DNA of 64,000 bases, taken from contig JBMLOQ010000130.1 of the NCBI GenBank assembly GCA_049242885.1, positions 5,821 through 69,820 on the forward strand, given 5' to 3'. The notes below the pieces were generated by a model. That model searched no databases, was not told where the DNA came from, and saw only the letters and a list, made by a program, of their open reading frames with translations. The position numbers were made by a program, and so were the translations under genes. This document shows, one piece after another, positions 46,927 to 64,000 of the stretch (its first letter is position 1; each line of letters opens with the position of its first letter). Source of the stretch: Chitinophagaceae bacterium (GTDB lineage: Bacteria > Bacteroidota > Bacteroidia > Chitinophagales > Chitinophagaceae).

Positions 46927-47011
46927 TTTTATTTTTTATTTATGATGTAAAATCAACCACTTACATCTTGTTTATTATTCCAAACTATTTTGGAACATTT
47001 TAACTTTTAAA

Positions 47012-47851: not shown

Positions 47852-47949
47852 TTTCTTTTTATTTAATTTGATGATTTAATTTACTTATCATCAGTTTTTG
47901 CAATTATTATCAGATTTGCTTTCTATAATCTCTTTTGATGTTAATTAAA

Positions 47950-48249
47950 TTATACACCAGAGTATAAATCAATAGTTTCACCATCAGCTACAGTAACTAA
48001 AGCTTTTTTGTAAGAGCTTTTTGTACCTTGTATATAACCAGCTTTTGTGAAACGGCTTTTATTTTTTGCAGGAGCTACTAATGTGTTTACACTAGTTACA
48101 GTTACTCCATAAAAACTTTCTATCGCTCTTTTAATCTCTAATTTATTAGCTTTTTTACCAACTCTAAAAGCATAAGTACGCAACTTAGTTTGTTGCAAAT
48201 TTGCTTTTTCGGTTAAAATTGGCTTTATTAAAATTTCTGACTGTCTCAT
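47950..48249 (-). CDS. rplW: 50S ribosomal protein L23
   Basis: uL23 (ILIKPILTEKA...KKALVT). Confidence 0.95.
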   Translation of the reverse strand: MRQSEILIKPILTEKANLQQTKLRTYAFRVGKKANKLEIKRAIESFYGVTVTSVNTLVAPAKNKSRFTKAGYIQGTKSSYKKALVTVADGETIDLYSGV

Positions 48250-48314
48250 TTTATTTTATTTAAACTTAGAAAGTATCAGTTTAATGCAACACTTTCTTGT
48301 TTTAGAATTTATTA

Positions 48315-48950: not shown

Positions 48951-49017
48951 TTTTTTAATTTGAAAATTGAAAATTATTTTCTTTTTTTCTTTTTGCTAAT
49001 TGTTGTATTAGCTAATT

Positions 49018-49638
49018 TTATTTTTGAACTAATACGATTGATCCATTATGACCAGGTACTGAACCAGTAACTAATATATAATTTTGTTCAGGGAAAATTT
49101 TAACAACTTTTAAGCCTTTCATTTTTACTCTGTCGCCACCCATTCTTCCTGCCATTCTCATGCCTTTGAATACACGTGATGCATCAGAAGAGTTACCAAT
49201 AGAACCTGGAGCTCTTTGACGATCATGCTGACCATGAGAAGCCTCACCAACTCCAGAGAATCCATGACGTTTTACAACACCTTGGAAACCTTTACCTTTG
49301 GTAGTACCAACCACTTCAATATCATCACCTTCAGCAAAAATGTCAACAGTAACAGTTTCGCCTAATGCTTTTTGTATAGAGTAGTTTCTAAATTCTTTTG
49401 TAAATCTTTTTGGAGCAGTGCTAGCTTTTGCAAAGTGGTTAATTTCTGCTTTTACGCTGTGCTTTTCTTTTTTATCAACAACGGCTAATTGTAAAGCGTT
49501 GTAACCGTCTGTTTCAACAGTTTTGATTTGAGTAACCGTATTTGGTTGAGCCTCAATAATGGTGCAAGCTGTTTGTTTGCCATCGGCACCAAAAATGCTT
49601 GTCATCCCAATTTTTTTTCCAATAATTCCTTTCATCAT
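49018..49638 (-). CDS. rplC: 50S ribosomal protein L3
   Basis: uL3 (GIIGKKIGMTSIF...GKGFQGVVKRHGF.G). Two consecutive ATGs at the start. Confidence 0.97.
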   Translation of the reverse strand: MMKGIIGKKIGMTSIFGADGKQTACTIIEAQPNTVTQIKTVETDGYNALQLAVVDKKEKHSVKAEINHFAKASTAPKRFTKEFRNYSIQKALGETVTVDIFAEGDDIEVVGTTKGKGFQGVVKRHGFSGVGEASHGQHDRQRAPGSIGNSSDASRVFKGMRMAGRMGGDRVKMKGLKVVKIFPEQNYILVTGSVPGHNGSIVLVQK

Positions 49639-49654
49639 TTGCGGTTTTAAATTT

Positions 49655-49828
49655 GCCCGCGAGGTTTAATAAAGGACATATAGAAGATGAATATCTATAG
49701 TCAATCCTTGTTTGCCAACGACCTTTTCTTTTGTTTTAAGTATTAAACTTAAGTAGAAGTACCGTTGGTAAACAAACCTCGAAGGGCTTGTTTATATTTA
49801 GCCTTCTCACCACTATTAAGTGGGGAAG
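49655..49828 (-). promoter_or_regulatory. GC-enriched multi-stem RNA structure in the 286-nt rpsJ-rplC spacer (candidate cis-regulatory leader or small RNA)
   Basis: Hand-folded on the transcribed strand. The outer stem GCCCUUCGAGG/CCUCGCGGGC encloses the hairpin GUUUACCAACG...CGUUGGCAAAC (10 bp, 1 mismatch) and a second hairpin AAGGAU..UAUAGA-loop-UCUAUA..GUCCUU. An upstream hairpin CUUCCCCAC-UUAAUA-GUGGUGAGAAG is also present. No ORF longer than about 10 codons. Confidence 0.4.
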
Positions 49829-49924
49829 ATAATTAGTTAAAATCAGAGCTCTTTTAATTCCTAATGAACTTGAGAGTTGATATATTTATTTTTTAGAACT
49901 TTTTTTGTTTTGTCAAAACTTTCA

Positions 49925-50230
49925 TCAAGCTTTGATTTCAACCTCAACACCACTTGGCAAATCTAATTTGCTTAATGCATCAACTGTACGTGAACTAGAA
50001 GTGTAGATATCTAATAATCTTTTATGAGTGCATAATTGAAATTGCTCTCTACTTTTTTTGTTTACGTGGGGAGAACGCAATACTGTGAAAATTCTTTTAC
50101 GAGTAGGTAAAGGAATAGGACCTGTAACTACGGCTCCTGTGCTACGAACAGTTTTTACAATTTTGTCAGCAGACTTGTCTACTAAATTGTGGTCGAAGCT
50201 TTGTAATTTTATTCTAATTCTTTGTGACAT
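49925..50230 (-). CDS. rpsJ: 30S ribosomal protein S10
   Basis: uS10 ([18 protein letters not shown]...). The ATG at 50230 gives the canonical 101 aa, and the track extension (MKKWSPN) is rejected. Confidence 0.97.
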
Positions 50231-50259
50231 ATTCGGTGACCATTTTTTCAAATGGAGTG

Positions 50260-50418: not shown

Positions 50419-51207
50419 TTACCAACCACTGCTTAAACCCTGCTCCAATGCTTTATTATACTTTTCCAAATTAAACTTATAATAGTTGGGCGACTTATGT
50501 GGTACTCCTTTTTTTGTTTCATCTAGCTTTTCCAAAATATCATACCCTATCATTTTTCGCTGAAAATTTCTTCTGTCCAATTTTACATCTAATAAGGTTT
50601 CATAAAGCTTTTGAAGCTCGGGCATGGTAAATTTTTCTGGTAACAAATTATACCCAATTGGCTGATAATGTAGTTGTAACCGCAAAGAAGCCAAAGCTTT
50701 ATCTAGTATTTTTTTATGATCAAGAATAAAATTTGGAAGATTACTCAAATCACACCACTCATAATTTTCTGTTGTAGCATCTGCAATTTGTTTCACTTCC
50801 AAAAAATCAATTAATGCATAATAGCCAACAGTTACAAACCTTTGAATAAGCCAATGGTTTTCGTGAATTACTAATCCATCATTTAACAAATCTTCTATAT
50901 GAAATTCTTTAGTATATCTTTTTGTATCTCCAAATGTAAAAAACTGCTGCAAAAAAACCTCTGTTAACCCAGTTCTATCCTTTAAAACCCTATAAGCAGC
51001 TGCATCGCAGGGCTCATCTTTACTTACAAACCCACCTGGCAAAGACCACATATCTCTATACCTATGTTTTATCAGTAGCACTTTCAACTCCCCTTCATGA
51101 AAACCAAAAATTACACAGTCTACCGATACAGAAGGCAAAAATGAATTTTCACCCACTTTAACCATGGCGTCTAAACTTTCATTCTTTGGAATTTTTTGTT
51201 CAATCAT
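50419..51207 (-). CDS. NrtR-like Nudix-domain transcriptional regulator (degenerate Nudix box plus C-terminal winged helix)
   Basis: The Nudix-box position reads GGFVSKDEPCDAAAYRVLKDRTGL, so the REUxEE glutamates are replaced by RVLKDR. The C-terminal FTMPELQKLYETLLDVKLDRRNFQRKM is wHTH-like. The track start is TTG, and the ATG at 51207 is preferred. Confidence 0.7.
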   Translation of the reverse strand: MIEQKIPKNESLDAMVKVGENSFLPSVSVDCVIFGFHEGELKVLLIKHRYRDMWSLPGGFVSKDEPCDAAAYRVLKDRTGLTEVFLQQFFTFGDTKRYTKEFHIEDLLNDGLVIHENHWLIQRFVTVGYYALIDFLEVKQIADATTENYEWCDLSNLPNFILDHKKILDKALASLRLQLHYQPIGYNLLPEKFTMPELQKLYETLLDVKLDRRNFQRKMIGYDILEKLDETKKGVPHKSPNYYKFNLEKYNKALEQGLSSGW

Positions 51208-51273
51208 TTGTATTAAAAAAGGCAAAAAAAAAATTTTTTCTTGGAATTGTAAAATTTATTTCTATATATTGCG

Positions 51274-51299
51274 TCACAATGACACAATGAGAATTGTGT
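51274..51299. promoter_or_regulatory. candidate operator: CACAATGA direct repeat plus inverted repeat ACACAAT-N4-ATTGTGT
   Basis: TCACAATGACACAATGAGAATTGTGT seen directly in the divergent region between the Nudix regulator and the first glucan-locus gene. Confidence 0.35.
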
Positions 51300-51460: not shown

Positions 51461-54400
51461 ATGAAAAAGTTAAGAAGTGCTTTGGCACTGCTGGTTCTTA
51501 CAACTGGGCTAATGGCTCAAGTTTCAGTAAAAAATGGTAATGATGGCATGAAACTCTCGGTCAATGGCAAAGATTTCTTTGTAAATGGAATGAACTGGGA
51601 TTATTTTCCTATTGGAACTAACTACAATTATAGTTTGTGGAACCAAAGTGACGATCTTGTAAAACGAGCTTTAGACAATGAAATGCCACTTCTTAAAAAT
51701 ATGGGGGTGAACACCATAAGACAATATACAGGCGTACCTGCTAAATGGATAAAGTATATTTATGAAAATTATGGCATTTACACCATGCTTAACCACTCTT
51801 TTGGTCGTTATGGTTTAAACGTAAAAGGCAAATGGGAACCTAATACAGATTATGCTAACCCTAATGTTAGAGAATTGCTTTTAAAAGAAACAAAAGATAT
51901 GGTAAACCAATACAAAAACACTCCAGGTTTACTATTATTTCTTTTAGGAAACGAAAATAACTATGGTTTATTTTGGCGTGGTGCTGAAACCGAAAATATT
52001 CCTGTACAAGACAGAAAATCTACTAAAGATGCTGAATTTATGTACAAGCTTTTTAACGAAGCTGCTAAAGAAATGAAAGTTTTAGATCCTAATCATCCTA
52101 TGGCAATATGCAATGGAGATTTATTGTTTCTTGAAATTATTGCTAAGGAATGTAAAGACATTGATATTCTTGGTATTAACGCATATAGAGGAATGACTTT
52201 TACTGACATGTATGACAGAGCAAAAAAAGAATTTCCTAAACCAATAATTCTTACAGAGTTTGGTAGCGATGCTTATAATACACAAGCTAATAAAGAAGAT
52301 CAAGAATACCAAGCTAAAGTTTTAGTAAGCAATTGGAAAGATATTTATGCAAATGCTGCTGGAATGGGTAAAAACAACAATAGCCTTGGTGGATTTACAT
52401 TTCAATTTAGTGATGGATGGTGGAAAACTGGACAAACTGTAAATTTAGACGACCATGATGCTACTGCATCTTGGGCAAATGGTGGTTACACTAATGATTT
52501 TGTAAAAGGCGAAAACAATATGAACGAAGAGTGGTTTGGAATTTGTGCTAAAGGAAAAACCAATGAAAACGGCATTTACGATTTATATCCTCGTGCTGCT
52601 TACTATGTTTTAAAACAAGTTCATCAATTCAATCCATTTTCAGTTGCCAAAGCCAATTTAAATTTTATTGATAATATTCAAATTACCGAAGCAATGCTTT
52701 TGGCTCGTGGCGATAAAGCAGCCTTACAAGCAGAAAGCAAAGGCAACTTATACCTTAGTGATTTACAAGCAAATTTTTACACATTCAACACTGGAGGAAG
52801 TTTAATTACTACACCAAAATCTACTGAAGCTGCTTTGGCAAATGGTTATCCAAACAGACAAGGTTTTGACCACATGCAATCATTTAACCTTGGAATTACT
52901 GCAAAACCTGCTCCAAACGTATCAGCAAATGTTCAATTTAACTTATTGGGCAATGTAGCAGAAAATGCTATTGATGAAGTGTTTTACGAAAATAGAGGAA
53001 GACGTTTTGCAGTGAGTACACCAACAGGGCCTGTATTAATGAATTCAAATAATAGAGTTCAATTGTATAGAGCAAGTTATAGCTGGGATGCAAAAGATTT
53101 TAAACTAACTGGTTTTTACAGAACTGGACATTATCATTGGGCTTATGAAGGAGATATGTTTAACCTTTACCAAGAAGCAAATTATGGCCCAAACATAGAT
53201 ATATACAATGGTGAAGCTCCATTTGGATTTGAGTTAGAAGGTAAAAAGAAATTGAAAGGATTGAAGGTTGCTTTTGGCCCAGAACTTTGGTGGGGAGCCA
53301 ACCCTGCTATATTAGCTAAATACAATTTTAAATTAGCTAAGTTTGATGCTACAGCAATTTTTCATGAAGATTTAGTGCAACGTAGTGGTTTACAAAGTTC
53401 GTTTGCTGTGCCTGTACCAAAAACACGAAAAGCTACTTTTGCTTTAGCAAGAAAATTTGAAAAATTTGGTATTGAAATTGGTGGTATTTGGGGAGGACAG
53501 CCTTTAAATGGTAGGGTTTTTCAACTCGAAAGAGATGGAAAATACTATCAAGATGTAATAAAAAGTACCGACAATTTTGGAGGAAAAGTTAAACTTACTT
53601 ATTCAAGTGGTGCTATTCAATGGTATGGATTATCCTCTTACATGGGCTTAGTAGCAAATGGAGGATTCGATCAAACTCAAACCTTTACTGGATGGCGTTT
53701 AAAAGATGTTGGAAGTGGAAATATGTTTAATGTATTAAGTGGTTTTACATATAGTATTGGAAAATTACAAATTGCTCCAAACTTCATGTATCAAAAACCT
53801 CTAGAAGGGCCACTTTCTGCAAGTGCACAAGCACCAGCAAGACCAAGAAATATTTTAGATGATCCTTTTTCTGTTCGTTCAAATAGAGAAACAGTTGGTG
53901 GAGAATTATTATTAACTTACGATCCTACACCAGCAACTTGGATGTATCAATGGGATAATGACAGAGCAGAAGATGCAAAATTTGCAATAAGTGCTGGCTT
54001 TGTTTTCAGACATTTACCAACAGTTCAAGATGCTGCAATTGGTATCCTAGCCAATAGAAATTTATTTGCTTTCCCTGGCTCTGCTCCTGCTCAAGATTTG
54101 TGGGAAGTAAATACAAGAATTGTATCAAAATTAAACCCCAACTTTGGAATAATTGCCAATTTATATGCTGGTAATGGACAAGCAAATGGTAGCGATGCTA
54201 GAACAATTAATCGCTTTGGTGCAGATGTTAGAACCATTTACAAAAAAATGAAATTCATGGCAATTGCCAAGTTCAACGATTGGGGACCATTTGACTATCA
54301 TAGAGATTTTAACTTAACCTTTCCTTTGCAATTAACTGCTGATATTTCTACAGAAGTTGGCAAGCCAGATTGGTTTGTTTTACCAAGTACAAAAATTGGT

Positions 54401-54565
54401 TTAAGAGCAACATATAGAACGCTTGATAAATATTCTCCACGTTACGCTCCAATTAAAGTTTTAGACCCAGCAGGCAATTGGGTTCCAGATCCAAATGCAA
54501 TAGGTTTTCCAAATGGTAATGAGTGGGAATTTAGAACATACATTCAATTCAATCTAGGCAGATAA
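51461..54565 (+). CDS. secreted fusion protein: clan GH-A (GH2/GH5-like) TIM-barrel glycosidase-like domain plus a roughly 600-aa predicted outer-membrane beta-barrel
   Basis: Signal peptide. GVNTIRQY, LLFLLGNENNY (acid/base-like NE) and PIILTEFGSDAY (nucleophile-like E) lie in the first 400 aa or so. From about residue 430 there are 20 or more amphipathic alternating strands (VSANVQFNLLGNV, FKLTGFYRTG, LKVAFGPELWWG, FGIEIGGIWGG, KVKLTYSSG, FAISAGFVFRH, FGIIANLYAGNG, KIGLRATYRT, EWEFRTYIQFNLGR) with aromatic girdle residues. Confidence 0.6.
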   Translation: MKKLRSALALLVLTTGLMAQVSVKNGNDGMKLSVNGKDFFVNGMNWDYFPIGTNYNYSLWNQSDDLVKRALDNEMPLLKNMGVNTIRQYTGVPAKWIKYIYENYGIYTMLNHSFGRYGLNVKGKWEPNTDYANPNVRELLLKETKDMVNQYKNTPGLLLFLLGNENNYGLFWRGAETENIPVQDRKSTKDAEFMYKLFNEAAKEMKVLDPNHPMAICNGDLLFLEIIAKECKDIDILGINAYRGMTFTDMYDRAKKEFPKPIILTEFGSDAYNTQANKEDQEYQAKVLVSNWKDIYANAAGMGKNNNSLGGFTFQFSDGWWKTGQTVNLDDHDATASWANGGYTNDFVKGENNMNEEWFGICAKGKTNENGIYDLYPRAAYYVLKQVHQFNPFSVAKANLNFIDNIQITEAMLLARGDKAALQAESKGNLYLSDLQANFYTFNTGGSLITTPKSTEAALANGYPNRQGFDHMQSFNLGITAKPAPNVSANVQFNLLGNVAENAIDEVFYENRGRRFAVSTPTGPVLMNSNNRVQLYRASYSWDAKDFKLTGFYRTGHYHWAYEGDMFNLYQEANYGPNIDIYNGEAPFGFELEGKKKLKGLKVAFGPELWWGANPAILAKYNFKLAKFDATAIFHEDLVQRSGLQSSFAVPVPKTRKATFALARKFEKFGIEIGGIWGGQPLNGRVFQLERDGKYYQDVIKSTDNFGGKVKLTYSSGAIQWYGLSSYMGLVANGGFDQTQTFTGWRLKDVGSGNMFNVLSGFTYSIGKLQIAPNFMYQKPLEGPLSASAQAPARPRNILDDPFSVRSNRETVGGELLLTYDPTPATWMYQWDNDRAEDAKFAISAGFVFRHLPTVQDAAIGILANRNLFAFPGSAPAQDLWEVNTRIVSKLNPNFGIIANLYAGNGQANGSDARTINRFGADVRTIYKKMKFMAIAKFNDWGPFDYHRDFNLTFPLQLTADISTEVGKPDWFVLPSTKIGLRATYRTLDKYSPRYAPIKVLDPAGNWVPDPNAIGFPNGNEWEFRTYIQFNLGR

Positions 54566-54585: not shown

Positions 54586-55989
54586 ATGAAAAATAATAAA
54601 ACAATTCAAACCATATTATTCAATCTTTTAGGATTAATAATTTTAACTGGTGTTGCTTGCAAAAAAAGAGATGTTACAGGCTTAGAAGCACCAAAGTTTC
54701 CAAAAACAGCAGATGTGTTTATCGACGATTTTACTGGCGATTTAGGTTATGGTGCCTTTGGCGGTTCGGATGTAAGAGCTTTTAGCATAGAAACAAGAGA
54801 AACTTATAATAATTCTCGTCAATCCATGCGATTTGATGTACCAGATGCAAATAGCCCACTTGGCTCATACGCAGGTGGAGTTTTTATAAGCAATTCTGGA
54901 AGAGATTTAAGTGGTTTTAATGCTTTAACTTTCTACATCAAAGCTAATCAAGCAATTACAGTGGGAGAAATTGGTTTTGGCAACGATTTTGGAGCAAACA
55001 GATATGTAGTATCCATAAAAGATTTACCAGTAGCAACAGGTTGGAAAAAAATTATCATTCCAATTCCAGATCCTTCAAAATTAACAGCAGAAAAAGGATT
55101 AATGTATTATGCAGCTGCACCAATAGGCAATAGAGGCTATACATTTTGGATTGACGAAGTAAAGTTTGAAAAACTAGGAACTATAGGTTTAGGCCAAGCA
55201 TCAATTAATAATGGAAATAATACTTCTATTACAACATTTGCAGGTGTAAATACTACAATCACTGGTGTAATTGCTACATTTAATTTACCAACAGGTGTAA
55301 ATCAAGTAGTTAACTTAAGCACAGCTTATTTTGATTTTAAATCTTCAAATACAGCAGTAGCCTCTGTAAATGCAAATGGAGTAGCAACAGCCTTAAGTGC
55401 TGGAACATCTACAATTACAGCAACAATAAGTGGTAAGCCTGCTACAGGAAGTTTAACCATTAATTGTGCAGGTAGATATATAAATGCACCTACACCAACA
55501 AGACCACAATCTAATGTAATTTCAATTTTCTCAGATGCTTATACCAATGTACCAGTTAATTATTACAATGGTTATTGGGCTCCATGGCAAACTACTATTT
55601 CCAATGATTTTACTGTAAATGGAGATAATGTTTTAAATTATAACGTGTTCAACTTTGTTGGAATGGAATTTACTGCACCAACTGTGAATGCAACCAATAT
55701 GACCCATTTTCACCTTGATGCCTTTTTCCCAGGTACAATTGCTCCAGGAAGACAATTAAGGATTATTCTTGTTGATTTTGGTGCAGATCGTTCTTTTGGT
55801 GGTGGAGATGATACAAGACATTCAACCACATTTACTGCACCAACCTTAGTATCACAAAGTTGGGTGCAACTAGACATTCCTTTTTCTGCAATGCCAGGTT
55901 TAGTAAGCAGAAACAATATAGCTCAAATAATTTTAGAAGGTGGCGACAACTCAACGCTTTATGTTGACAATGTTTATTTCTGGCGTTAA
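54586..55989 (+). CDS. surface lipoprotein with CBM-like beta-sandwich, Big_2 Ig-like and C-terminal CBM-like domains (candidate glycan-binding protein)
   Basis: Lipobox LTGVAC. The Big_2-like segment is NTAVASVNANGVATALSAGTSTITATISG. The flanking domains have beta-sandwich sequence character, and the C-terminal one ends ILEGGDNSTLYVDNVYFWR, like the CBM-like domain of the GH16 at 35551-37437. Confidence 0.55.
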   Translation: MKNNKTIQTILFNLLGLIILTGVACKKRDVTGLEAPKFPKTADVFIDDFTGDLGYGAFGGSDVRAFSIETRETYNNSRQSMRFDVPDANSPLGSYAGGVFISNSGRDLSGFNALTFYIKANQAITVGEIGFGNDFGANRYVVSIKDLPVATGWKKIIIPIPDPSKLTAEKGLMYYAAAPIGNRGYTFWIDEVKFEKLGTIGLGQASINNGNNTSITTFAGVNTTITGVIATFNLPTGVNQVVNLSTAYFDFKSSNTAVASVNANGVATALSAGTSTITATISGKPATGSLTINCAGRYINAPTPTRPQSNVISIFSDAYTNVPVNYYNGYWAPWQTTISNDFTVNGDNVLNYNVFNFVGMEFTAPTVNATNMTHFHLDAFFPGTIAPGRQLRIILVDFGADRSFGGGDDTRHSTTFTAPTLVSQSWVQLDIPFSAMPGLVSRNNIAQIILEGGDNSTLYVDNVYFWR

Positions 55990-56039: not shown

Positions 56040-56876
56040 ATGAACTTTCAAATAATTAAAACAAAAAAAATAAACAAGGCAAACACATTTGCCTACCTAG
56101 CTTTAATAGTTTTGCTAAGTAGTTGCCAAAAAGATGGTATTCAAAATTTACCAAAAAGGTCTTGGGAGCTTACTTGGAGTGATGATTTTAATGGCACTGC
56201 AGGCTCGGCACCAGATAATTCTAAATGGAATTTTGACCTTGGTACTGGTACAAATGGTTGGGGAAACAGTGAGTTACAAACTTACACCAACCAGCCTTCT
56301 AATATTCAGCAAGACGGTAATGGAAGACTATTAATTACTGCTAGAAGTGGCGGTTTTACTAGTGCAAGAATTAATACAAAAGGGAAATTTGCACAAGCTT
56401 ATGGTAGATTTGAAGCTAGAATAAAAACTACTCATGGCCCTGGTATTTGGCCAGCATTTTGGATGATGGGAGCTAACATAGATTCTAAACCTTGGCCTCA
56501 ATGTGGTGAAATTGATATTTTGGAACAAAAGGGTCAAGAGCCTCATATCACTTATAGCACTATACATGGCCCTGGATATGCAGGTGGTAGTTCTATTGCA
56601 AAAATGTTTTCATTAGAGAATGATAGATTCGATAACGATTTTCATATCTATGCTGTAGAATGGGGAACAGATTTTATTGATTTTTATGTAGATGATTTTT
56701 TGTTCCATCGCATTACTCCTGAAACACTTAAAGGAAAAGAGTGGGTATTTAATCAACCATTTTTCATCCTTTTAAATGTTGCTATTGGTGGTAACTATGT
56801 TGGCTTTCCTACAGCTGGCACACCATTTCCACAAAGTATGATGGTTGATTATGTAAAAGTATATAAGCAACGTTAA
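56040..56876 (+). CDS. GH16 endo-beta-1,3-glucanase (laminarinase), lipoprotein
   Basis: Lipobox LLSSC. WSDDFNG, WPAFWMMG and the catalytic motif GEIDILEQ (ExDxxE). Confidence 0.9.
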   Translation: MNFQIIKTKKINKANTFAYLALIVLLSSCQKDGIQNLPKRSWELTWSDDFNGTAGSAPDNSKWNFDLGTGTNGWGNSELQTYTNQPSNIQQDGNGRLLITARSGGFTSARINTKGKFAQAYGRFEARIKTTHGPGIWPAFWMMGANIDSKPWPQCGEIDILEQKGQEPHITYSTIHGPGYAGGSSIAKMFSLENDRFDNDFHIYAVEWGTDFIDFYVDDFLFHRITPETLKGKEWVFNQPFFILLNVAIGGNYVGFPTAGTPFPQSMMVDYVKVYKQR

Positions 56877-56978: not shown

Positions 56979-59900
56979 ATGAATTCTGCAAGTACTGTAA
57001 ATAAGCCTTTAGAATCGGTAGTAATTAATGATGAAATATTTTATAAAATAGAAAATGTAGATGCTTTGCGTCCATTTTTTATGAGCATTGTAAGCGATAG
57101 TAATCATTGGCTTTTTGTAGCTAGTAATGGTGGTTTAAGTGCTGGAAGAAAAAATGCACAGTTTGCACTATTTCCTTACTATACAGATGATAAAATTACA
57201 GAAAGTGCCGAAAATACAGGTAGCAAAACAATTGTTAAAGTACATCAAAACAATTCTACTGTTTTGTGGCAACCTTTTTCGGTTAAAGACGAAGGAAAAT
57301 TCAATAAAACCAATAATTTGTATCAAAGCAAATGGGGTAATAAAATTATTTTCGAAGAAATAAATCATGATTTACAAATAAGTTTTTCATACGAATGGAG
57401 TAACAGTAACGAATTTGGATTTGTAAAAAAATCTACCCTTACAAATTTATCTAATAACAAAGTTGAAGTTAGCTTTATAGATGGCTTACAAAACATTATG
57501 CCATATGGTGTTCCATCGGATGTACAAAATAGCACCAGTAATTTAGTTGATGCCTATAAAAGAAGTGAACTTTTGCCAGAATGTGGAATTGGTATTTATG
57601 CACTAAGTGCCATAATTGTAGATAAAGCAGAACCAGCCGAAGCCCTAAAAGCTAATATTGTTTGGAGTTTTGGCTTAGATAATGTAACCTACTTATTATC
57701 TTCATTTCAATTAAAAAACTTTATAAAAAATGTAGCAATAACCCAAGAAGAAGATGTAAAAGGTGAAAAGGGTGCTTACTTTATTACTAGTAATATTTCT
57801 TTAGAAGCAAATGCTAACAAAAGCTGGTATTTTGTTGCTAATGTAAACCAAACACAAAGCAATGTTATTGCATTAAATGAGTTTTTAAAAACCGAGAAAA
57901 AATTAGCTGAAAAAATTAAAAGCAGCATTGATTTAGGAACCCAAAATTTGCAACAGCTAACTGCCGCTGCTGATAGTTTGCAATTTACAGCAGATACTTT
58001 AAAAGATACAAGGCACTATAATAATGTTTTGTTCAACATAATGCGAGGTGGCATTTTCGACAACAACTATCAAATTGAAAAATGGGACTTTGAATTGTAC
58101 ATTCAAAAAGCAAACAAACAACTTTTTGAAAGTTTAAGTGCAACCCTTAATTCTTTACCAAATGAATGTAGCATTTTTCAGTTAAAAGCAATTGCTGAGC
58201 AAAGCAACAACAATGATTTTATAAGGTTAGCCACAGAATACTTACCACTAAAATTTAGTAGAAGACATGGAGACCCAAGTCGCCCTTGGAATCAATTTTC
58301 AATCAACACTCGTAGCGAAGTTGATGGCTCTAAAATTTTAGATTATCAAGGTAACTGGAGAGATATTTTTCAAAACTGGGAAGCTTTAGCACATGCATAT
58401 CCAGCGTTTATAGAAGGCATGATTACAAAGTTTTTAAATGCCTCTACATTTGATGGATATAATCCTTATCGTGTAACTAAAGATGGTTTTGATTGGGAAA
58501 CAATAGAACCAGATAATCCTTGGAGTTATATTGGCTATTGGGGTGATCATCAAATAATTTATTTACTTAAATTTTTAGAATTTGCAGAGCAACATCAAGC
58601 AGGATTTTTAAGTTCTAAATTATTGAACAATCATTTTGTGTACGCCAACGTGCCTTACAAAATTAAATCGTATGATGCCATTGTAGCTAATCCAAAAGAT
58701 ACCATTGAATACGACCATGCTAACGAAAAAAATATTCATTATAGAATTGCTACATTAGGTGCTGATGGAGCATTGTTAGCTACAAAAAATGGTGAAATTT
58801 ATAAAGTAAATTTCATAGAAAAAATATTAGCAACCACTCTTGCAAAACTTTCAAACTTTGTACCAGAAGCTGGGATTTGGATGAATACACAACGCCCAGA
58901 ATGGAATGACGCCAATAATGCTTTAGTAGGCAATGGTGTATCAATGGTAACGTTATATTATTTAAGAAGATTTTTAAACTTTTTAATTGAATCATTAGAC
59001 AATAACTCCATTCATAATATTGAAATTTCAAATGAAATTCATAGTTTTTATACTGCTATTGCAGAAACTTTGAAACATCATGAGACATTACTTTCGACTT
59101 CAATTTCCAACAAAAAAAGAAAAGAAATAGTTGATGCTTTAGGCAATGCTGCAAGTAGCTTCAGAAATAATGTTTATGACAATTCTTTCAGTGGCTCAAA
59201 ATCTATAATTTCAACTTGTGAGCTGATTAACTTCTTTAAAACTGCTTTGCAATTTATTGATCATTCTATTAAAGCAAATAAACGAAACGACAATCTTTAT
59301 CACGCCTACAATTTACTCAATTTTGAAAATGATGGTTTAAGTATTTCTTACTTAAGCGAAATGTTAGAAGGGCAAGTTGCTGTATTAAGTGCTGGTATTT
59401 TAACAGCTGAGGAAAGTATAAAAGTTTTAGATGCTTTAAAAGCTAGTTCATTGTATCGAGCTGATCAGAATAGCTATATACTTTACCCAAACAAACAACT
59501 ACCTAGATTTTTAGTAAAAAATAACATCACATCATCAGCAATACAAACTTCTAGTTTGCTTCAACAACTTTTACAAGATGGCAACACTTCAATTATTGAA
59601 AAAGACATACTTGGTGGATTTCATTTTAATGGCAATTTTAAAAATGCCGATGATGTTGCAACGGCATTAAACAATTTAAACGAAGTTTATAGCAACCTTG
59701 TATCTCAAGATAAAGACCTGGTTTTAGATATTTTTGAAACGGTATTTAACCATAAAGAATTTACAGGTCGTTCTGGAACTTTCTTTGCTTTTGAAGGGTT
59801 AGGATCCATTTATTGGCACATGGTAAGCAAGTTGGCTGTTGCTGTGCAAGAAACTTGTTTAAGAGCAATAAGTTCAGGTGCTTCAAATGATTTAATTAAT

Positions 59901-60413
59901 AAACTAGTAGCACATTATTATGCTGTTAGCGATGGCATTGGTGTTCATAAATCACCAAGTGTTTATGGTGCTTTCCCAATTACGCCATACTCTCATACAC
60001 CATTGCATAAAGGAGCTCAACAACCAGGAATGACAGGGCAAGTAAAAGAAGATATTCTTACACGCCTGGGTGAATTGGGAGCTAACATAAAACAAGGAAA
60101 GCTACATTTTGAACCAACCATTTTGCTAAAGAAAGAATTGTTGCAGGATTCCCTTAACGCAAATTTTGCTTTGGTAGATGGAAGTTCAAAAACCATTTTG
60201 ATACCAAAAGATGCTTTAGCTTTTACCATTTGTCAAGTTCCAATAATATATAAAATTTCAACTTTAGTAAAAATTGAAATTGAATTCGCAATTGGCGTAA
60301 TTGAAACTTTAAACGGCAATTGCTTATCAGAAATTTTAACTCAAAAAGTAGTTAATAGAACAGGTGAAATTAATCGAATCACAGTTTATTTAAATGAAGG
60401 TTGCTTTAAATAA
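56979..60413 (+). CDS. large cytoplasmic GH94-clan-like glycoside phosphorylase, GH149-like (candidate beta-1,3-glucan phosphorylase)
   Basis: No signal peptide, 1144 aa. GNWRDIFQNWEAL resembles the RDxxQ motif. RPEWNDANNALVG resembles the catalytic DWND-type motif. FEGLGSIYWHM resembles the GSxxW phosphate-site motif of GH94-type phosphorylases. Size and neighbours (GH16/GH17/GH30/GPH) fit what is reported for bacterial GH149. Confidence 0.55.
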   Translation: MNSASTVNKPLESVVINDEIFYKIENVDALRPFFMSIVSDSNHWLFVASNGGLSAGRKNAQFALFPYYTDDKITESAENTGSKTIVKVHQNNSTVLWQPFSVKDEGKFNKTNNLYQSKWGNKIIFEEINHDLQISFSYEWSNSNEFGFVKKSTLTNLSNNKVEVSFIDGLQNIMPYGVPSDVQNSTSNLVDAYKRSELLPECGIGIYALSAIIVDKAEPAEALKANIVWSFGLDNVTYLLSSFQLKNFIKNVAITQEEDVKGEKGAYFITSNISLEANANKSWYFVANVNQTQSNVIALNEFLKTEKKLAEKIKSSIDLGTQNLQQLTAAADSLQFTADTLKDTRHYNNVLFNIMRGGIFDNNYQIEKWDFELYIQKANKQLFESLSATLNSLPNECSIFQLKAIAEQSNNNDFIRLATEYLPLKFSRRHGDPSRPWNQFSINTRSEVDGSKILDYQGNWRDIFQNWEALAHAYPAFIEGMITKFLNASTFDGYNPYRVTKDGFDWETIEPDNPWSYIGYWGDHQIIYLLKFLEFAEQHQAGFLSSKLLNNHFVYANVPYKIKSYDAIVANPKDTIEYDHANEKNIHYRIATLGADGALLATKNGEIYKVNFIEKILATTLAKLSNFVPEAGIWMNTQRPEWNDANNALVGNGVSMVTLYYLRRFLNFLIESLDNNSIHNIEISNEIHSFYTAIAETLKHHETLLSTSISNKKRKEIVDALGNAASSFRNNVYDNSFSGSKSIISTCELINFFKTALQFIDHSIKANKRNDNLYHAYNLLNFENDGLSISYLSEMLEGQVAVLSAGILTAEESIKVLDALKASSLYRADQNSYILYPNKQLPRFLVKNNITSSAIQTSSLLQQLLQDGNTSIIEKDILGGFHFNGNFKNADDVATALNNLNEVYSNLVSQDKDLVLDIFETVFNHKEFTGRSGTFFAFEGLGSIYWHMVSKLAVAVQETCLRAISSGASNDLINKLVAHYYAVSDGIGVHKSPSVYGAFPITPYSHTPLHKGAQQPGMTGQVKEDILTRLGELGANIKQGKLHFEPTILLKKELLQDSLNANFALVDGSSKTILIPKDALAFTICQVPIIYKISTLVKIEIEFAIGVIETLNGNCLSEILTQKVVNRTGEINRITVYLNEGCFK

Positions 60414-61663
60414 TGCTCAAAAAAATCTCTATCATATTCACAGCAACTGTTGCTTTTTTAAACACTGGTTTTGCTCAACAAAAAAATGCAAACCCAACAG
60501 CAGCTACTATTTTAGGTAATCCAAAATATAAAGCTATTTGCTATGGAGGTTATAGACAGTGTAATAGAGATAGTGCCCCTACAATTGCTCAAATAAAAGA
60601 AGATCTTAAAATTTTAACTGCTTTAAACTATAAAATATTAAGAACCTATAATGTACATAAACAAGAAATTTCTAATATACTTGAAGCTATAACACAACTA
60701 AAAAAAGAGCGAAAGCAATTTGAAATGTATGTTATGCTTGGTGCTTGGATTGATTGTAAAAATGCTTGGACCAACTTACCTCCTATTCATAACGAAGAAA
60801 GTGAACGTAATGCTGTTGAAGTAGCTGAAGCTGTGAGATTAGCCAATAAATATCCTTCAATAGTTAAAATAATTTCTGTAGGCAATGAAGCAATGGTAAA
60901 CTGGGCTACGAGCTATTATGTAACCACAAATATCATTTTAAAATGGGTTAATCATCTTCAAAATCTTAAGAAAACCAACCAACTAAATAAAGATATTTGG
61001 ATTACAAGTTCTGACAATTTTGCTTCTTGGGGTGGTGGAGATTCTAGTTATCATTCAAACGACTTAAAAGCATTAATAAATGCAGTAGATTATGTGTCTA
61101 TACACACCTACCCTATGCACGATACCCATTATAATCCAACGTTTTGGGGTACTAAAGCCAACGAAAAAAACCTATCCCAAAAAGAACAAGTTAAAGCTAT
61201 AATGCTTAGAGCAAGGGACTATGCTATTAATCAATATAACAGTGTTGTACACTATATAAAAGCTAATGGTATTAAAAAAGCTGTGCACATTGGTGAAACT
61301 GGTTGGGCTACTCAATGCAATGAGCTTTATGGCAATAATGGATCAAAAGCAATTGACGAATATAAAGCTGCTATTTATCATCAACTAATTAGCGATTGGG
61401 CAACTAAACAAAAAATAAGTTGCTTTTACTTCGAAGCATTTGATGAATGTTGGAAAAACGGAAGTAATCCTATGCACTCTGAAAATCATTTTGGTTTCAT
61501 TAACCTTAATGGTCAAGCAAAATATGCACTTTGGAAATTAGTTGACAAAGGCGTTTTTAAATCACTTACTAGAGATGGCAAAAATATTACTAAAACTTAT
61601 GATGGAAATGAAGCTTTGCTAATGAAAGAAGTGCAATTACCCACATCAATTTTAAAAAATTAA
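60413..61663 (+). CDS. GH17 family beta-1,3-glucanase / glucanosyltransferase, secreted
   Basis: Signal peptide. ISVGNEAMVNW (acid/base) and HIGETGWATQ (nucleophile), as in GH17. The start overlaps the upstream stop (TAATG). Confidence 0.8.
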   Translation: MLKKISIIFTATVAFLNTGFAQQKNANPTAATILGNPKYKAICYGGYRQCNRDSAPTIAQIKEDLKILTALNYKILRTYNVHKQEISNILEAITQLKKERKQFEMYVMLGAWIDCKNAWTNLPPIHNEESERNAVEVAEAVRLANKYPSIVKIISVGNEAMVNWATSYYVTTNIILKWVNHLQNLKKTNQLNKDIWITSSDNFASWGGGDSSYHSNDLKALINAVDYVSIHTYPMHDTHYNPTFWGTKANEKNLSQKEQVKAIMLRARDYAINQYNSVVHYIKANGIKKAVHIGETGWATQCNELYGNNGSKAIDEYKAAIYHQLISDWATKQKISCFYFEAFDECWKNGSNPMHSENHFGFINLNGQAKYALWKLVDKGVFKSLTRDGKNITKTYDGNEALLMKEVQLPTSILKN

Positions 61664-61674: not shown

Positions 61675-63174
61675 ATGAAAAAACTTATAAAAAGTGCAAA
61701 ACTGTTGATGATTACATTAAGTATGATTGCTGTTTTAAATGAAAATAGTTCAGCCCAAAAATTAATAGTAGAAATTTATGAAACTGCTGCGAATGGAAAT
61801 TCTTTAAAAAAAATTGCTCCTATTTCAAAGGCTATTAATCCTATAAAAATTTCTATTAATCCAGAAGAAAAATTTCAAAAAATTACTGGTTTTGGGGGTT
61901 CTTTTACACAATCAACAGCCTATTTACTAAACAAGCTTAGTGCTGCCAATCGAAAAAAAATTATTGATGGTTATTTCAGCGAAGCTGGAGCAAACTACTC
62001 CCTCACCAGAACACATATAAACTCTTGTGATTTTAGTACGCATCAATATGCTTATAACACTACTCCCAATGATACAGCTTTAAATCAGTTTGATATTAGT
62101 GAAGATGAAAAGGGTATTATACCTATGATTAAGGCTGCAAAAAAAACCAGCAAAGATGGCTTTAAAATAATTGCTTCGCCTTGGACTGCACCACCTTGGA
62201 TGAAAGACAACAACCTTTGGGTGGGCGGAAAATTGCTACCAAAATATTACGATACTTGGGCATTATATTTTAGCAAATACTTTAAGGCATATAAAAAACA
62301 CAACATCAATTTTTGGGGCATTACTGTAGAAAACGAACCTCATGGAAATGGCAATAATTGGGAAAGTATGTTGTATAGTCCAAAAGAAATGACAGATTTT
62401 GTAGAGTTTCATCTTGGACCTAAGCTAGAAAAAGATGGATATGGTAAAATAAAAATTTTAGGTTACGATCAAAACCGTGCTGGCATACAAGAATGGGTAG
62501 ATGAAATGTATCGTTCTCCCAACTCAACCAAATATTATGCAGGTTTAGCAGTTCATTGGTACGAAAGCACCTATGATTATTTTGGTGATGCTTTACAATA
62601 TGCACACAAAAAAAATCCATCGAAACATTTAATAAATACTGAGGCTTGCATTGATAGTGATGTGCCAGCTTGGAAAAATGATAGTTGGTATTGGAGCAAA
62701 GAAGCAACAGATTGGGGCTGGGATTGGGCAAGTGAAAAAGAAAAACATTTGCACCCCAAATATGCCCCAGTATTTAGATATGCTACAGATATTATTGGCT
62801 GTTTAAATAATTATGTAGATGGTTGGGTAGATTGGAATATGGTTTTAAACAAACAAGGTGGCCCAAATTGGTTTAAAAACTGGTGTGCTGCTCCTGTGTT
62901 GGTAGATGAAGATAAAGACGAAGTGTATTTTACCCCTTTGTATTACACTATGGCTCACTTTAGTAAATTTATAAGACCAGGAGCTACTAGAATTGGCTTT
63001 ACAAATCCTGATAAAGACTTGATGGTTACTGCTGCAAAAAATGTTGATGGAAGTATTGCAGTAGTTGTATTTAATCAAACAGAAGAAACAAAAAACATTT
63101 CACTAACGATTAATAAAAAACTTGTTGACTTAAAAATTTCAGCAAAAGCTATTCAAACCATTTTTATAAAATAA
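61675..63174 (+). CDS. GH30 family glycosidase (beta-1,6-glucanase / glucosylceramidase-like), secreted
   Basis: GFGGSFTQS, SPWTAPPWMK, ITVENEP (acid/base) and INTEAC (nucleophile). Signal peptide present. Confidence 0.85.
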   Translation: MKKLIKSAKLLMITLSMIAVLNENSSAQKLIVEIYETAANGNSLKKIAPISKAINPIKISINPEEKFQKITGFGGSFTQSTAYLLNKLSAANRKKIIDGYFSEAGANYSLTRTHINSCDFSTHQYAYNTTPNDTALNQFDISEDEKGIIPMIKAAKKTSKDGFKIIASPWTAPPWMKDNNLWVGGKLLPKYYDTWALYFSKYFKAYKKHNINFWGITVENEPHGNGNNWESMLYSPKEMTDFVEFHLGPKLEKDGYGKIKILGYDQNRAGIQEWVDEMYRSPNSTKYYAGLAVHWYESTYDYFGDALQYAHKKNPSKHLINTEACIDSDVPAWKNDSWYWSKEATDWGWDWASEKEKHLHPKYAPVFRYATDIIGCLNNYVDGWVDWNMVLNKQGGPNWFKNWCAAPVLVDEDKDEVYFTPLYYTMAHFSKFIRPGATRIGFTNPDKDLMVTAAKNVDGSIAVVVFNQTEETKNISLTINKKLVDLKISAKAIQTIFIK

Positions 63175-63205: not shown

Positions 63206-64000
63206 ATGTCAAATTCAGTACAAACAAATAAAGTACCTATGGTTAAAAAGGTAGCTTTTGGTGTAGGTATGCTTGCAAACCAAATGTTTCCTGCTGCCCT
63301 TGGAGTATTTATGGTTGTATTAGTAAACGGTTTTGGATTTCCTGTTTGGATGGTTGCTATTTTAACCTTTGCTCCAAGACTTTTAGATTTTGTAATTGAT
63401 CCAATCATGGGTTTTATTACTGATAATACACGCTCTCGTTGGGGCAAAAGAAGACATTATGTTTTTATTGGTGCTATAATATTAGGCATTAGTTTTTTAT
63501 TCATGTGGCAAATACATAAAGACAATGGAATAACATTTAATTTTTTCTATTTTCTGTTTTTTAAACTTTGCTTATACATTGGGCTTACTATTTTTAGTAT
63601 TCCTTTTGTAGCCATGGGTTATGAAATGAGCGAAGATTTTCACGAGCGTACACAAATTATGGCTATTGCACAATGGATTGGTCAATGGGCTTGGGTAATT
63701 GTTCCTTGGTTTTGGATAATTATTTACGACCCAACTTGGTTTCCTTCTCCTGAAGCAGGGGCAAGGTCATTATCAGTTTGGGTAGCAATAATTTGCATGC
63801 TTTTTGCTATGGTTCCTGCCTTTTTTATAAAGTCGGCATCTACCTTAAACGAAACAAGTTTTAAATCCATAAGCTTAAGAAATATTGGAGGTATTTTTAA
63901 AAATTTAATTCACGAATTTAAAGAGGCATTTAAATTACAAGACTTTAGAAGATTGTGCTATGCAACCTTTTTTACCTTCAATGCTTTTAACACAGTTGCA
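63206..64000 (+). CDS. GPH-family (glycoside-pentoside-hexuronide:cation symporter) MFS transporter, 5' partial (continues past the window end)
   Basis: Hand translation from the ATG at 63206 stays open to the window end. The GPH signature is IDPIMGFITDNTRSRWGKRRHY, and multiple TM helices are present. The antisense ORF at 63196-63447 is rejected. Confidence 0.85.
   Translation, partial: MSNSVQTNKVPMVKKVAFGVGMLANQMFPAALGVFMVVLVNGFGFPVWMVAILTFAPRLLDFVIDPIMGFITDNTRSRWGKRRHYVFIGAIILGISFLFMWQIHKDNGITFNFFYFLFFKLCLYIGLTIFSIPFVAMGYEMSEDFHERTQIMAIAQWIGQWAWVIVPWFWIIIYDPTWFPSPEAGARSLSVWVAIICMLFAMVPAFFIKSASTLNETSFKSISLRNIGGIFKNLIHEFKEAFKLQDFRRLCYATFFTFNAFNTVA

Follow-up and report, generated by a model that had tools for sequence, protein, structure and literature searches.

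How do beta-1,3-glucan chains cross the outer membrane of a Bacteroidota cell when the locus that degrades them encodes neither SusC nor SusD? The question is raised by a gene cluster at the end of a 64,000-nucleotide stretch, referred to here as the window, from a Chitinophagaceae bacterium (GenBank assembly GCA_049242885.1, contig JBMLOQ010000130.1, positions 5,821 to 69,820 of the forward strand). The first gene of this cluster (51461..54565, plus strand) encodes a protein of 1034 amino acids that consists of two halves: Pfam and an AlphaFold2 model identify an N-terminal triosephosphate isomerase (TIM) barrel domain of glycoside hydrolase (GH) clan GH-A and a C-terminal predicted beta-barrel. 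We propose, with a probability of about 0.6, that this fusion is the outer-membrane component of a SusC/SusD-independent system for the utilisation of beta-1,3-glucan (laminarin). Its outer-membrane location, its channel function, the side on which the enzyme sits, the specificity and the independence from TonB are all properties that we infer.

The open reading frame (ORF) begins with ATG, comprises 1034 codons and was confirmed by the ORF list. It can hardly be a chance ORF, because more than 5600 clusters match the window protein in a database clustered at 90% identity, and the best 120, which were listed, are nearly all full length. Residues 1-19 (51461..51517, plus strand) read as a signal peptide, MKKLRSALALLVLTTGLMA, which is followed by Q; the model has a helix over residues 2-15. 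The signal peptide contains no lipobox Cys and its sequence is of the signal peptidase I type. The Gln at position +1 of the mature protein agrees with the 'Q-rule' of Bacteroidota.

The enzyme domain covers residues about 20-400 (51518..52660, plus strand) and was delimited by Pfam, by sequence matches in the PDB and by Foldseek as a GH158-like (beta/alpha)8 domain of clan GH-A. The Pfam model Glyco_hydro_2_C (PF02836) matches residues 68-287 (E 6e-7, 29.3 bits, cut-off 21); Glyco_hydro_cc is the other match, and no further Pfam families were found in the protein. Of 334 aligned family members 286 have the N-terminal domain, and N164, E165 and E266 are the same in every one of these. N164-E165, the predicted acid/base pair, lies in the motif GNENNY (residues 163-168; pair at 51950..51955, plus strand), and E266, the predicted nucleophile, in TEFGSD (residues 265-270; codon at 52256..52258, plus strand). 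These motifs align with LGNE and TEFG of GH158(Pro). The corresponding residues of BuGH158, N136, E137 and E220, are essential (PMC7157763). Since clan GH-A enzymes have their acid/base and nucleophile where the aligned motifs fall, we read these residues as catalytic; the predicted TIM-type fold, with an Asn-Glu acid/base motif and a Glu nucleophile motif in the aligned positions, agrees with the clan features of GH158, in which the former follows beta-4 and the latter beta-7.

The closest solved relative by sequence is GH158(Pro) (PDB 9oro; E 1.4e-6 when the domain is the query, 2.5e-8 when the family profile is), and BuGH158 (PDB 6pal) is found with the family profile at E 5.5e-8; these GH158 matches are weak and span about 150-200 residues. 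Foldseek places GH158(Pro) (9p26), BuGH158 (6pal) and a laminaribiose complex of GH157 (9g5g) at the top, with E values of 4e-14 to 1e-13 and, for GH158, identities of 12-13%; GH2 glucuronidases rank next below. The sugar-binding and Ig-like domains that precede the TIM barrel in GH2 are absent from the protein, whose TIM region begins near residue 30, close behind the signal peptide, and the LacZ-type models of NCBIfam score about 22 bits against cut-offs above 1200. The names 'GH2 TIM barrel-domain containing' and 'beta-galactosidase' that such proteins bear in public databases derive from hidden Markov models (HMMs) alone. A C-terminal Ig-like domain of the BuGH158 type is also not present; after residue ~390 come the linker helix and the barrel. 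The GH-A hallmarks with two intact catalytic Glu residues, which the earlier note on this DNA had pointed out, thus proved to be sound and could be sharpened to a GH158-like assignment. On these grounds the N-terminal half is predicted to be an active, retaining, GH158-like beta-1,3-glucanase. The beta-1,3 assignment is based on the locus context and on the nearest structures, and we regard this specificity as likely. A free-standing, secreted homologue of the N-terminal domain (335 aa, E 1e-18) occurs in one locus, L049 (17613-18620), which also has a full fusion.

The model of the complete protein was built with AlphaFold2 on an alignment of 136 sequences, which combined distant relatives from a search of barrel representatives with the results of two further homologue searches and was made non-redundant. 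It reached a mean predicted local distance difference test score (pLDDT) of 89.5 and a predicted template modelling score (pTM) of 0.81; a shallow alignment of 30 close homologues had given a pLDDT of only 51 and an unusable model. The DSSP assignment of the good model shows a TIM-type alternation over residues 21-388, a linker helix that leads from the enzyme domain to strand 1 at residues 408-425 (52682..52735, plus strand), and 24 long strands of 7-18 residues between 430 and 1032. Across residues 401-430 the three consecutive blocks of 10 residues have mean pLDDT values of 94, 91 and 75.

The C-terminal domain (residues 430-1034; 52748..54562, plus strand) is predicted, from DSSP and Foldseek, to be a plug-less beta-barrel domain of about 24 amphipathic strands. 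Most strands show the hydrophobic/polar dyad pattern, with one hydrophobic and one polar face. Turns of 2-3 residues, several of them rich in Lys (AK, FEK, GK, KK, KKKLKG), alternate with loops that measure 7-36 residues. Of the eleven turns predicted to be periplasmic, ten comprise 2-10 residues, and four short hairpins lie within the long loops. The lengths of turns and loops are nearly invariant between distant clades. The protein therefore has the generic features of a barrel inserted by the beta-barrel assembly machinery (BAM): a Sec signal peptide, an even number of amphipathic strands, short turns and long loops. A run of 20 or more amphipathic strands had been predicted from the sequence, and the 24 strands counted from the DSSP string agree with that prediction. 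We consider it very probable that this half resides in the outer membrane.

The searches assigned the barrel to no known family. Residues 420-1034 have zero Pfam matches at E<=10, their best PDB match with phmmer is at chance level (E 0.59), a PDB profile search was empty, and NCBIfam matched nothing in the C-terminal half in either the whole-protein scan or a further scan. Pfam was equally empty for the barrels of 10 standalone and 24 diverse family members. The barrel family is covered by no Pfam or NCBIfam model. HMM searches on each half had been suggested by the earlier note; with Pfam they returned Glyco_hydro_2_C and Glyco_hydro_cc for the N-terminal half and nothing for the C-terminal half.

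The fact that the gene lies directly after a regulator, the usual place of susC, raises the question of whether the protein is a divergent TonB-dependent transporter in which a glucanase has replaced the plug and import is energised by TonB. Foldseek gives some substance to this idea: in the top 50 the sole matches other than GH enzymes are barrels of TonB-dependent transporters, BtuB3 (8p98, E 2e-9) and PfeA (5m9b, E 2e-8). Furthermore, in one locus from a Desulfuromonadales metagenome-assembled genome (MAG), L089, genes for ExbB and two ExbD proteins (20654-22295, minus strand) lie 7.5-9 kb downstream of the fused gene; in no other context were parts of a Ton system seen nearby. However, the likeness is at the level of fold only (E 2e-9, TM-score per target 0.35). 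The Plug model (PF07715) was not found in the whole protein at E<=0.01, in residues 1-419 and 420-1034 at E<=10, or in 24 diverse members at E<=1, and TonB_dep_Rec and CarboxypepD_reg matched neither the window protein nor these 24 members. A comparison of the barrel profile with six TonB-dependent/SusC sequences by hhalign gave a probability of 0.1, a weak test in view of the six-sequence alignment. No TonB box was recognised by eye in the mature N-terminus (QVSVKNGNDG...), a motif that is highly degenerate. In addition, a TIM barrel of 380 aa should be too large for the lumen, and the standalone forms described below have only about 10 residues ahead of strand 1. Together, these results leave little probability for a TonB-energised transporter and are in line with the earlier reading of the sequence, in which no plug was recognised; neither Pfam, NCBIfam, the PDB profile search nor hhalign assigned it to a known plug-bearing transporter family. 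The autotransporter model (PF03797) matched neither the window protein nor the diverse members, and no porin family model of Pfam or NCBIfam matched the barrel. By these tests the fusion belongs neither to the SusC-like transporters nor to the sugar-specific porins. Independence from TonB appears moderately probable to us.

The family is large and widespread. Among representatives at 50% identity, 490 match the barrel alone, and at least 584 species carry the family in a pattern scan with one genome per species; the patterns were peptides derived from the alignment, one of which covers the segment 821-841. The sources span Bacteroidota, Gammaproteobacteria, Myxococcota and Desulfuromonadales. 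They include Chitinophagaceae (with a MAG, L009, that is 94% identical), Flavobacterium (F. terrisoli, F. franklandianum, F. chungnamense and F. piscinae), Chryseobacterium aquaticum, Cloacibacterium rupense, Algoriphagus, Saprospiraceae, Bacteroidales and Balneola, as well as Chromatiales, Leucothrix, Desulfuromonadales, Archangium, Myxococcus, Corallococcus and Pyxidicoccus. All of these named organisms belong to diderm phyla. The N-terminal domain is present in every long representative, down to about 30% identity in the barrel, from which we conclude that the fusion is old. One variant has an additional CBM_4_9 domain. In a MAG whose protein is 83% identical (L017, 1314-14419) the fused gene, the GH149 gene and the GH30 gene are broken into several ORFs, a sign either of decay or of frameshifts introduced by faulty assembly.

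The most informative members are barrels without an enzyme. About 36 clusters comprise proteins of 560-650 aa with a signal peptide of their own, for example MSSPNKHFALLPVVLALISTQANG followed by RGADLP. After the signal peptide they start at the position of the linker helix of the window protein (ARG.D motif), with only about 10 residues ahead of strand 1. Gene-calling splits were considered as their origin; this was ruled out by the signal peptides of their own and by the identity of the upstream gene, a LacI regulator or a GH16 gene. In their contigs the standalone genes are bordered at one end by a gene for a LacI regulator or for GH16, and at the other end by GH16 or by type I secretion genes; an Opp-type ATP-binding cassette (ABC) importer and sometimes a GH1 gene are found nearby, and no GH158-like gene was found in these contigs. 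The type I secretion set (OEP, ABC, HlyD-like) occurs in five standalone loci (L001, L005, L006, L007 and L008), four of which, all but L006, encode GH16 proteins of 498-1417 aa. The barrel thus persists without the enzyme in an equivalent pathway and must have a function of its own. This is our main argument for a channel over an anchor or a secretion device.

The conservation within the barrel fits this argument. Three segments stand out in the alignment. The most conserved loop, residues 553-590 (53117..53230, plus strand), carries YRTGHYHWAYEGDMF...DIYN..AP (HYHW.YEGDF...D); its residues H559, W560, G564, D565, F566, D580 and P587 are at least 90% conserved in distant fused forms and in a subset of four standalone sequences, and its length of 34 is invariant between the two. 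A second loop, residues 780-810 (53798..53890, plus strand; ..PRN..DDPF.V..NRE), shares R796, D801, F803, V805, N808 and R809 between fused and standalone forms. The third is a segment of 21 residues, 821-841 (53921..53983, plus strand; DPTPATW..WDND..ED), on the periplasmic side as judged from strand parity; here D821, P822, T823, P824, T826, W831, E837 and A839 are conserved in both forms and the length of 21 is also invariant. The loop 638-655 and the turn 967-976 are shorter in standalone forms than in fused ones. The alignment of fused with standalone forms revealed no residues that are conserved in fused forms only, a result that is suggestive, not decisive. The concentration of conserved residues in loops that are common to both forms fits a functional lumen. 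We interpret the three segments as lining the lumen, where they would do its work, or as forming a constriction within it, and the loop 553-590 is, from the alignment, a candidate for a lumen or constriction element. Overall, a channel function of the barrel seems to us somewhat more probable than its absence.

The topology of the model also bears on the position of the enzyme. By the canonical topology of outer-membrane proteins the short turns and the C-terminus would be periplasmic, and with 24 strands the start of strand 1 would lie on the same side; about 40 well-ordered residues join the enzyme domain to this strand. Both points place the enzyme domain on the periplasmic side, which we regard as the better supported location. 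To our knowledge, soluble domains that are N-terminal to outer-membrane barrels are periplasmic (BamA, LptD, ushers, PgaA), the passengers of autotransporters apart. Neither a lipobox nor a sorting domain of the type IX secretion system (T9SS), which could deliver the enzyme to the surface, was found in the fusion protein.

Next we asked in what company the gene occurs. The context survey covered 88 loci, 80 of them from Bacteroidota. A GH16 gene is present in 78 of the 88 loci, a lipoprotein with a carbohydrate-binding module (CBM) in 76, GH149 in 53, GH30 in 50, GH17 in 48 and a transporter of the major facilitator superfamily (MFS) in 41. In four phyla the neighbours are always genes for beta-1,3-glucan (GH16, GH149, GH30, GH17, GH1); the importers are of the Opp-type ABC or the MFS type, and the regulators are LacI, ROK, GntR, NUDIX or BguR-like. 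In nearly all Bacteroidota maps a CBM11/Big_2 lipoprotein gene lies directly 3' of the fused gene, as susD lies after susC. The end of the CBM lipoprotein, ...DNVYFWR, resembles the end ...DNLYFTAE of a second lipoprotein in myxobacterial loci. In about 43 of the 80 Bacteroidota loci the fused gene adjoins a gene for a regulator (e.g. L027 6889-9705 and L010 6834-9728), which measures ~940 aa, has a Reg_prop-like N-terminus and resembles BguR of Formosa agariphila (bioRxiv 10.64898/2026.01.10.698779). A NUDIX-type regulator occurs in only 4 of the 88 loci (L002, L009, L016 and L017).

Outside Bacteroidota, in Archangium, a related metagenomic contig and the Desulfuromonadales MAG, the fused gene is in or beside a cluster that comprises GH16, an Opp-type ABC importer and a regulator of the ROK or GntR type; two of these three clusters also have GH1. 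On a contig of the clade that was retrieved with the gammaproteobacterial standalone barrel, a GH16 protein of 4171 aa is followed by the fused gene, a GH149-sized gene, Entner-Doudoroff genes and GH30. In each of the four fused loci from other phyla (L003 13218-13772; L004 13003-13629; L089 13117-13764; L090 13201-13764) the next gene 3' of the fusion encodes a lipoprotein of 184-215 aa with a lipobox. The encoded proteins are 39-54% identical across Gammaproteobacteria, Myxococcota and Desulfuromonadales and have no recorded Pfam match; a profile of this protein found nothing in the Bacteroidota and standalone-barrel loci searched with it. Possibly the small lipoprotein and the barrel are partners. 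Overlaps of 4 nt between the fused gene and its neighbours are seen in L090.

This context also speaks to the idea that the proteins export or remodel a beta-glucan made by the cell itself, as an export porin with a trimming hydrolase in the manner of BcsC/BcsZ or AlgE/AlgL. Exopolysaccharide exporters do pair outer-membrane barrels with periplasmic hydrolases, and some family members weakly match Glyco_hydro_72, a family of glucanosyltransferases. However, no glycosyltransferase or synthase was found in any locus examined, and the neighbours are those of catabolism and import: GH16, GH30, GH17, GH1, GH149, ABC importers with binding proteins, MFS, Entner-Doudoroff genes and sugar-responsive repressors. 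An export function is, in our view, barely credible.

SusC and SusD were sought in the survey with queries from L085 and L080, and every unassigned ORF of at least 650 aa was read by eye; the TonB-dependent transporter of the window itself, when used as the query, misses real SusC genes. The window locus contains neither SusC nor SusD. Within 10 kb of the fused gene a SusC/SusD pair was found in only three of the 80 Bacteroidota loci (L055, L080 and L085), and SusD homologues occur in three of the 80 and are never adjacent to the fused gene; a constant association with such a pair, which would have counted against the earlier reading, was thus not observed. Other TonB-dependent transporters are present in L058 and L070.

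Several observations weigh against our interpretation, and two of the competing explanations draw on them. The number of strands comes from a count in the DSSP string, and the closure of the barrel and the position of the enzyme domain are deduced from the strand pattern and from canonical topology. The TM-scores to known transporter barrels are low (0.33-0.35 per target, root-mean-square deviation 14-16 A). The window protein ends in ...YIQFNLGR, without a terminal aromatic residue. A coevolution analysis (mutual information with average product correction, 357 sequences, effective number 148) was too weak to place the domains and was discarded as noise: its top pairs fell mostly in variable or indel regions and the inter-domain pairs pointed to both faces. 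BuGH158 is predicted to be a cell-surface enzyme (PMC7157763). Three loci have SusC/SusD beside the fusion, so that the barrel is not strictly an alternative to this pair; the laminarin polysaccharide utilisation locus (PUL) of Formosa agariphila apparently has SusC/SusD together with a GH158 gene (bioRxiv 10.64898/2026.01.10.698779), and unlinked SusC/SusD pairs may be encoded elsewhere in the genomes of carriers.

The first three of these points leave some room for the view that the glucanase is simply secreted and that its C-terminal region is no membrane barrel but a soluble, beta-rich domain with a carbohydrate-binding or structural role. Against this stand the 24 strands, which form consecutive dyad hairpins and do not show the domain boundaries of an Ig or CBM array; structure prediction, which had been proposed as a check on exactly this point, returned a single run of long, hairpin-paired strands and not an array of soluble beta-sandwiches. 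The top 50 of Foldseek consist of GH enzymes and transporter barrels, with no beta-sandwich array listed. Among gammaproteobacterial homologues the chain ends in Phe in 33 of 36 standalone forms and in 33 of 35 fused ones, and since a terminal Phe is the classical signal for insertion into the outer membrane by BAM, this counts toward a membrane barrel. The final residue is K or R (after ...IQFNLG) in the Chitinophagaceae clade, which includes the window protein; the clade to which the Myxococcota sequences belong mostly has L, M or I at this position. The restriction of all named sources to diderm phyla and the existence of secreted standalone forms with no more than the length of the barrel also disagree with a soluble domain, which we judge to be highly improbable.

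The predicted surface location of BuGH158 and the SusC/SusD genes in three loci are better accommodated by another view, in which the barrel exports the glucanase or anchors it at the cell surface, as in an autotransporter, and uptake proceeds via an unlinked transporter. The confidently modelled helix 408-425 ahead of strand 1 also recalls the linkers of autotransporters. However, barrels without a passenger exist in the same kind of locus; a barrel of ~24 strands and 600 aa is far larger than the 12-strand barrel of autotransporters, none of whose models match; the top conserved residues lie in barrel loops that the passenger-less forms share; a neighbouring gene already encodes a surface GH16 lipoprotein; and the N-terminal soluble domains of other barrel proteins, cited above, are on the periplasmic side. 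We therefore consider surface display unlikely. The earlier note had offered both a surface-anchored hydrolase and a channel; the standalone barrels and the topology favour the channel and disfavour the hydrolase, with function judged by inference in either case.

In the window itself the fused gene is the first after a divergent gene for a winged-helix regulator of the NUDIX/NrtR type (50419..51225, minus strand; Pfam NrtR_WHD E 5.6e-23, NUDIX E 4.6e-9, AraR_C E 1.1e-6), which is the probable regulator of the locus; the same regulator has the same position in L002, L009, L016 and L017. The place at the head of a glycan locus, where susC would be expected, was thus correctly recognised before. 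The next gene (54586..55989, plus strand) encodes a CBM11-like/Big_2 lipoprotein with the lipobox LTGVAC followed by KK and weak Pfam matches to CBM_11 and Big_2; it is the probable surface glycan-binding partner. It is followed by a GH16 lipoprotein (56040..56876, plus strand; Glyco_hydro_16 E 2.7e-25, lipobox LLSSC followed by QKD), a predicted surface endo-beta-1,3-glucanase, and by a GH149 beta-1,3-glucan phosphorylase (56979..60413, plus strand; NCBIfam NF058639, 1720.7 bits, cut-off 1150), which has no signal peptide and is cytoplasmic. Two periplasmic enzymes with signal peptides come next, GH17 (60413..61663, plus strand; PDB 6fcg of family GH17, E 1.5e-159) and GH30 (61675..63174, plus strand; Glyco_hydro_30 E 7.5e-76 and the GH30 C-terminal domain). 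The latter also matches the NCBIfam model of the endo-1,6-beta-glucanase BT3312 (E 2.9e-72, under its cut-off) and is predicted to act on beta-1,6-glucosidic linkages. The last gene (63206..64000, plus strand), which extends beyond the window, encodes an inner-membrane sugar symporter of the MFS/GPH type; its translation contains the DPIMGFITDNTRSRWGKRR motif and its homologue in L002 is annotated MFS_1/MFS_2. The signals thus assign the GH16 and CBM proteins to the lipoproteins, GH17 and GH30 to the substrates of signal peptidase I, and GH149 to the proteins without a signal peptide. The window locus is a full laminarin pathway from the surface to the cytoplasm, and the fusion is its only candidate for the passage through the outer membrane.

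Base 60413 is common to the stop codon of the GH149 gene and the start codon of the GH17 gene, which suggests translational coupling. The divergent promoter region contains a perfect palindrome, ACACAAT-GAGA-ATTGTGT (51282-51299), with a chance expectation of 0.04 per window; none of the other 88 loci yielded a match, and the palindrome is, as a sequence feature, a weak candidate for an operator. A ribosomal-protein operon (L3, L4, L2, S3 and others; 43736-50251, minus strand) directly adjoins the glucan locus. A second GH16 gene with a T9SS sorting domain (Por_Secre_tail; 35551-37437, minus strand) lies 14 kb upstream of the locus and presumably encodes a secreted glucanase. The only TonB-dependent transporter of the window, found by the same Pfam scan, is a lone protein of 752 aa with CarbopepD_reg_2 and Plug domains (31448-33709, minus strand), which has no adjacent SusD and is 20 kb from the locus. 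Still further away, an unusually large protein of 1264 aa (10324-14118, plus strand) has an N-terminal TraB/PrgY/GumN domain as its only recognised part.

From these assignments a sequence of events can be proposed for the channel that we favour. The fusion would be exported by Sec and cleaved by signal peptidase I, after which its C-terminal 600 aa would insert into the outer membrane as a barrel of ~24 strands. At the surface the GH16 lipoprotein would nick laminarin and the CBM lipoprotein would capture it. The fragments would then pass the plug-less barrel, which would act as a TonB-independent channel, and the GH158-like retaining glucanase, hung from strand 1 on the periplasmic side, would cut the emerging chains. 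Periplasmic GH17 and GH30 would complete the processing, the MFS symporter (an ABC importer in other phyla) would move short oligosaccharides across the inner membrane, and cytoplasmic GH149 would phosphorolyse them. A bolder version is that a processive glucanase, tethered where the channel opens into the periplasm, grips the chain on entry, cuts short products from it and in this way biases its threading inward, a ratchet driven by hydrolysis without TonB or proton-motive force. The precedent for processivity is GH158(Pro), an enzyme with a tunnel-forming active site that liberates laminaribiose (PMC13195107). We regard the ratchet as doubtful; it would, if it existed, differ from the pedal-bin transport of SusC/SusD as well as from passive porins.

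Searches of open-access full texts and bioRxiv preprints retrieved no account of a GH domain joined to such an outer-membrane barrel, which is not proof of its absence from the literature but accords with the earlier view of the architecture as uncharacterised. GH158 was also not found in the supplement of the Woeseiaceae paper. 'GH158' is listed with GH149, GH17, GH16 and GH30 in marine laminarin PULs (PMC10108472, PMC12175321; bioRxiv 10.64898/2026.01.10.698779), and it may be that fusions already carry this plain label in marine studies with the barrel overlooked. What we rate as new is the unmodelled barrel family and the unprecedented fusion; the parts themselves are of known kinds, the precedent for an enzyme joined to a transporter being MFS-GH17 of Formosa (PMC6246565) and that for a barrel with glucanase activity being GluM (PMC10800785). 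The fusion is a strong candidate for an undescribed device for the uptake of sugar chains.

Beta-1,3-glucans such as laminarin occur in great abundance in the sea and in the walls of fungi and oomycetes, and their uptake by Bacteroidota is explained almost wholly by SusC/SusD. Here we have a widespread, conserved module of fused barrel, lipoprotein and GH16, usually with GH149, GH17, GH30 and MFS, that occurs mostly without this pair. If the barrel is the import route, then an entire class of glycan loci escapes PUL prediction that depends on susC/susD pairs, annotations such as 'GH2 TIM-barrel' or 'GH158' conceal a transporter, and depolymerisation is coupled to outer-membrane passage in a new way. 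Since the family occurs in cultured organisms, in some genera with genetic tools (Flavobacterium, Chryseobacterium aquaticum, Algoriphagus, Archangium, Myxococcus and Corallococcus), its function is directly testable. The myxobacterial members may bear on the predation of fungi and oomycetes.

The two halves of the fusion resemble known systems to different degrees. The GH158 enzymes BuGH158 (6pal) and GH158(Pro) (9oro/9p26) are the best matches for residues 20-400 in both sequence and structure, and BuGH158 likewise occurs in laminarin loci with GH16. It has an Ig-like C-terminal domain (PMC7157763) where the fusion has a barrel of 600 aa, and it is a predicted cell-surface enzyme whereas the fusion has a signal peptide of the signal peptidase I type. 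SusC/SusD systems share with the window locus the order of genes, in which a large transporter-like barrel comes first after the regulator and a surface glycan-binding lipoprotein second. However, SusC has a plug, an N-terminal extension, a CarboxypepD_reg domain and a TonB box, none of which was recognised in the fusion, and no sequence similarity between the two was detected; SusC has 22 strands and the fusion about 24 as counted from DSSP, the fusion bears an N-terminal enzyme domain, and the partner of SusC is SusD whereas that of the fusion is the CBM/Big_2 lipoprotein.

The sugar porins LamB, ScrY, ChiP, CymA, KdgM and OprB are comparable in the proposed passive and selective passage of oligosaccharides and in the location of their genes in a matching catabolic operon, and it is the standalone barrels that resemble this class. 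Sugar porins have 12-18 strands, in contrast to the ~600 aa and ~24 strands of the present barrel, which is usually fused to a hydrolase and found in Bacteroidota. Type Va autotransporters have a 12-strand translocator that always comes with a passenger, whereas our family has ~24 strands and includes homologues without one. PapC usher, LptD, BamA, PgaA and BcsC have an N-terminal soluble domain followed by a large C-terminal barrel, a layout that supports a periplasmic N-terminal domain in the fusion; none of them is fused to a GH domain or imports nutrients, and no sequence similarity to the fusion was detected.

Two systems come close in concept. GluM of Corallococcus is an outer-membrane beta-barrel beta-1,6-glucanase (cited in PMC10800785). 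It is thus also an outer-membrane barrel that acts on a beta-glucan, and the present family likewise has members in Myxococcota. GluM is of the Oar/TonB-dependent-receptor type and is not known to contain a recognisable GH domain; in the fusion, by contrast, a canonical GH-A domain stands apart from the barrel, and this barrel is unrelated to that of GluM. MFS-GH17 of Formosa (PMC6246565, PMC10108472) is likewise a transporter covalently joined to an enzyme that is active on beta-1,3-glucan and serves in the use of laminarin. That transporter is an alpha-helical MFS protein of the inner membrane, whereas the present fusion joins a GH158-like domain to a predicted beta-barrel of the outer membrane.

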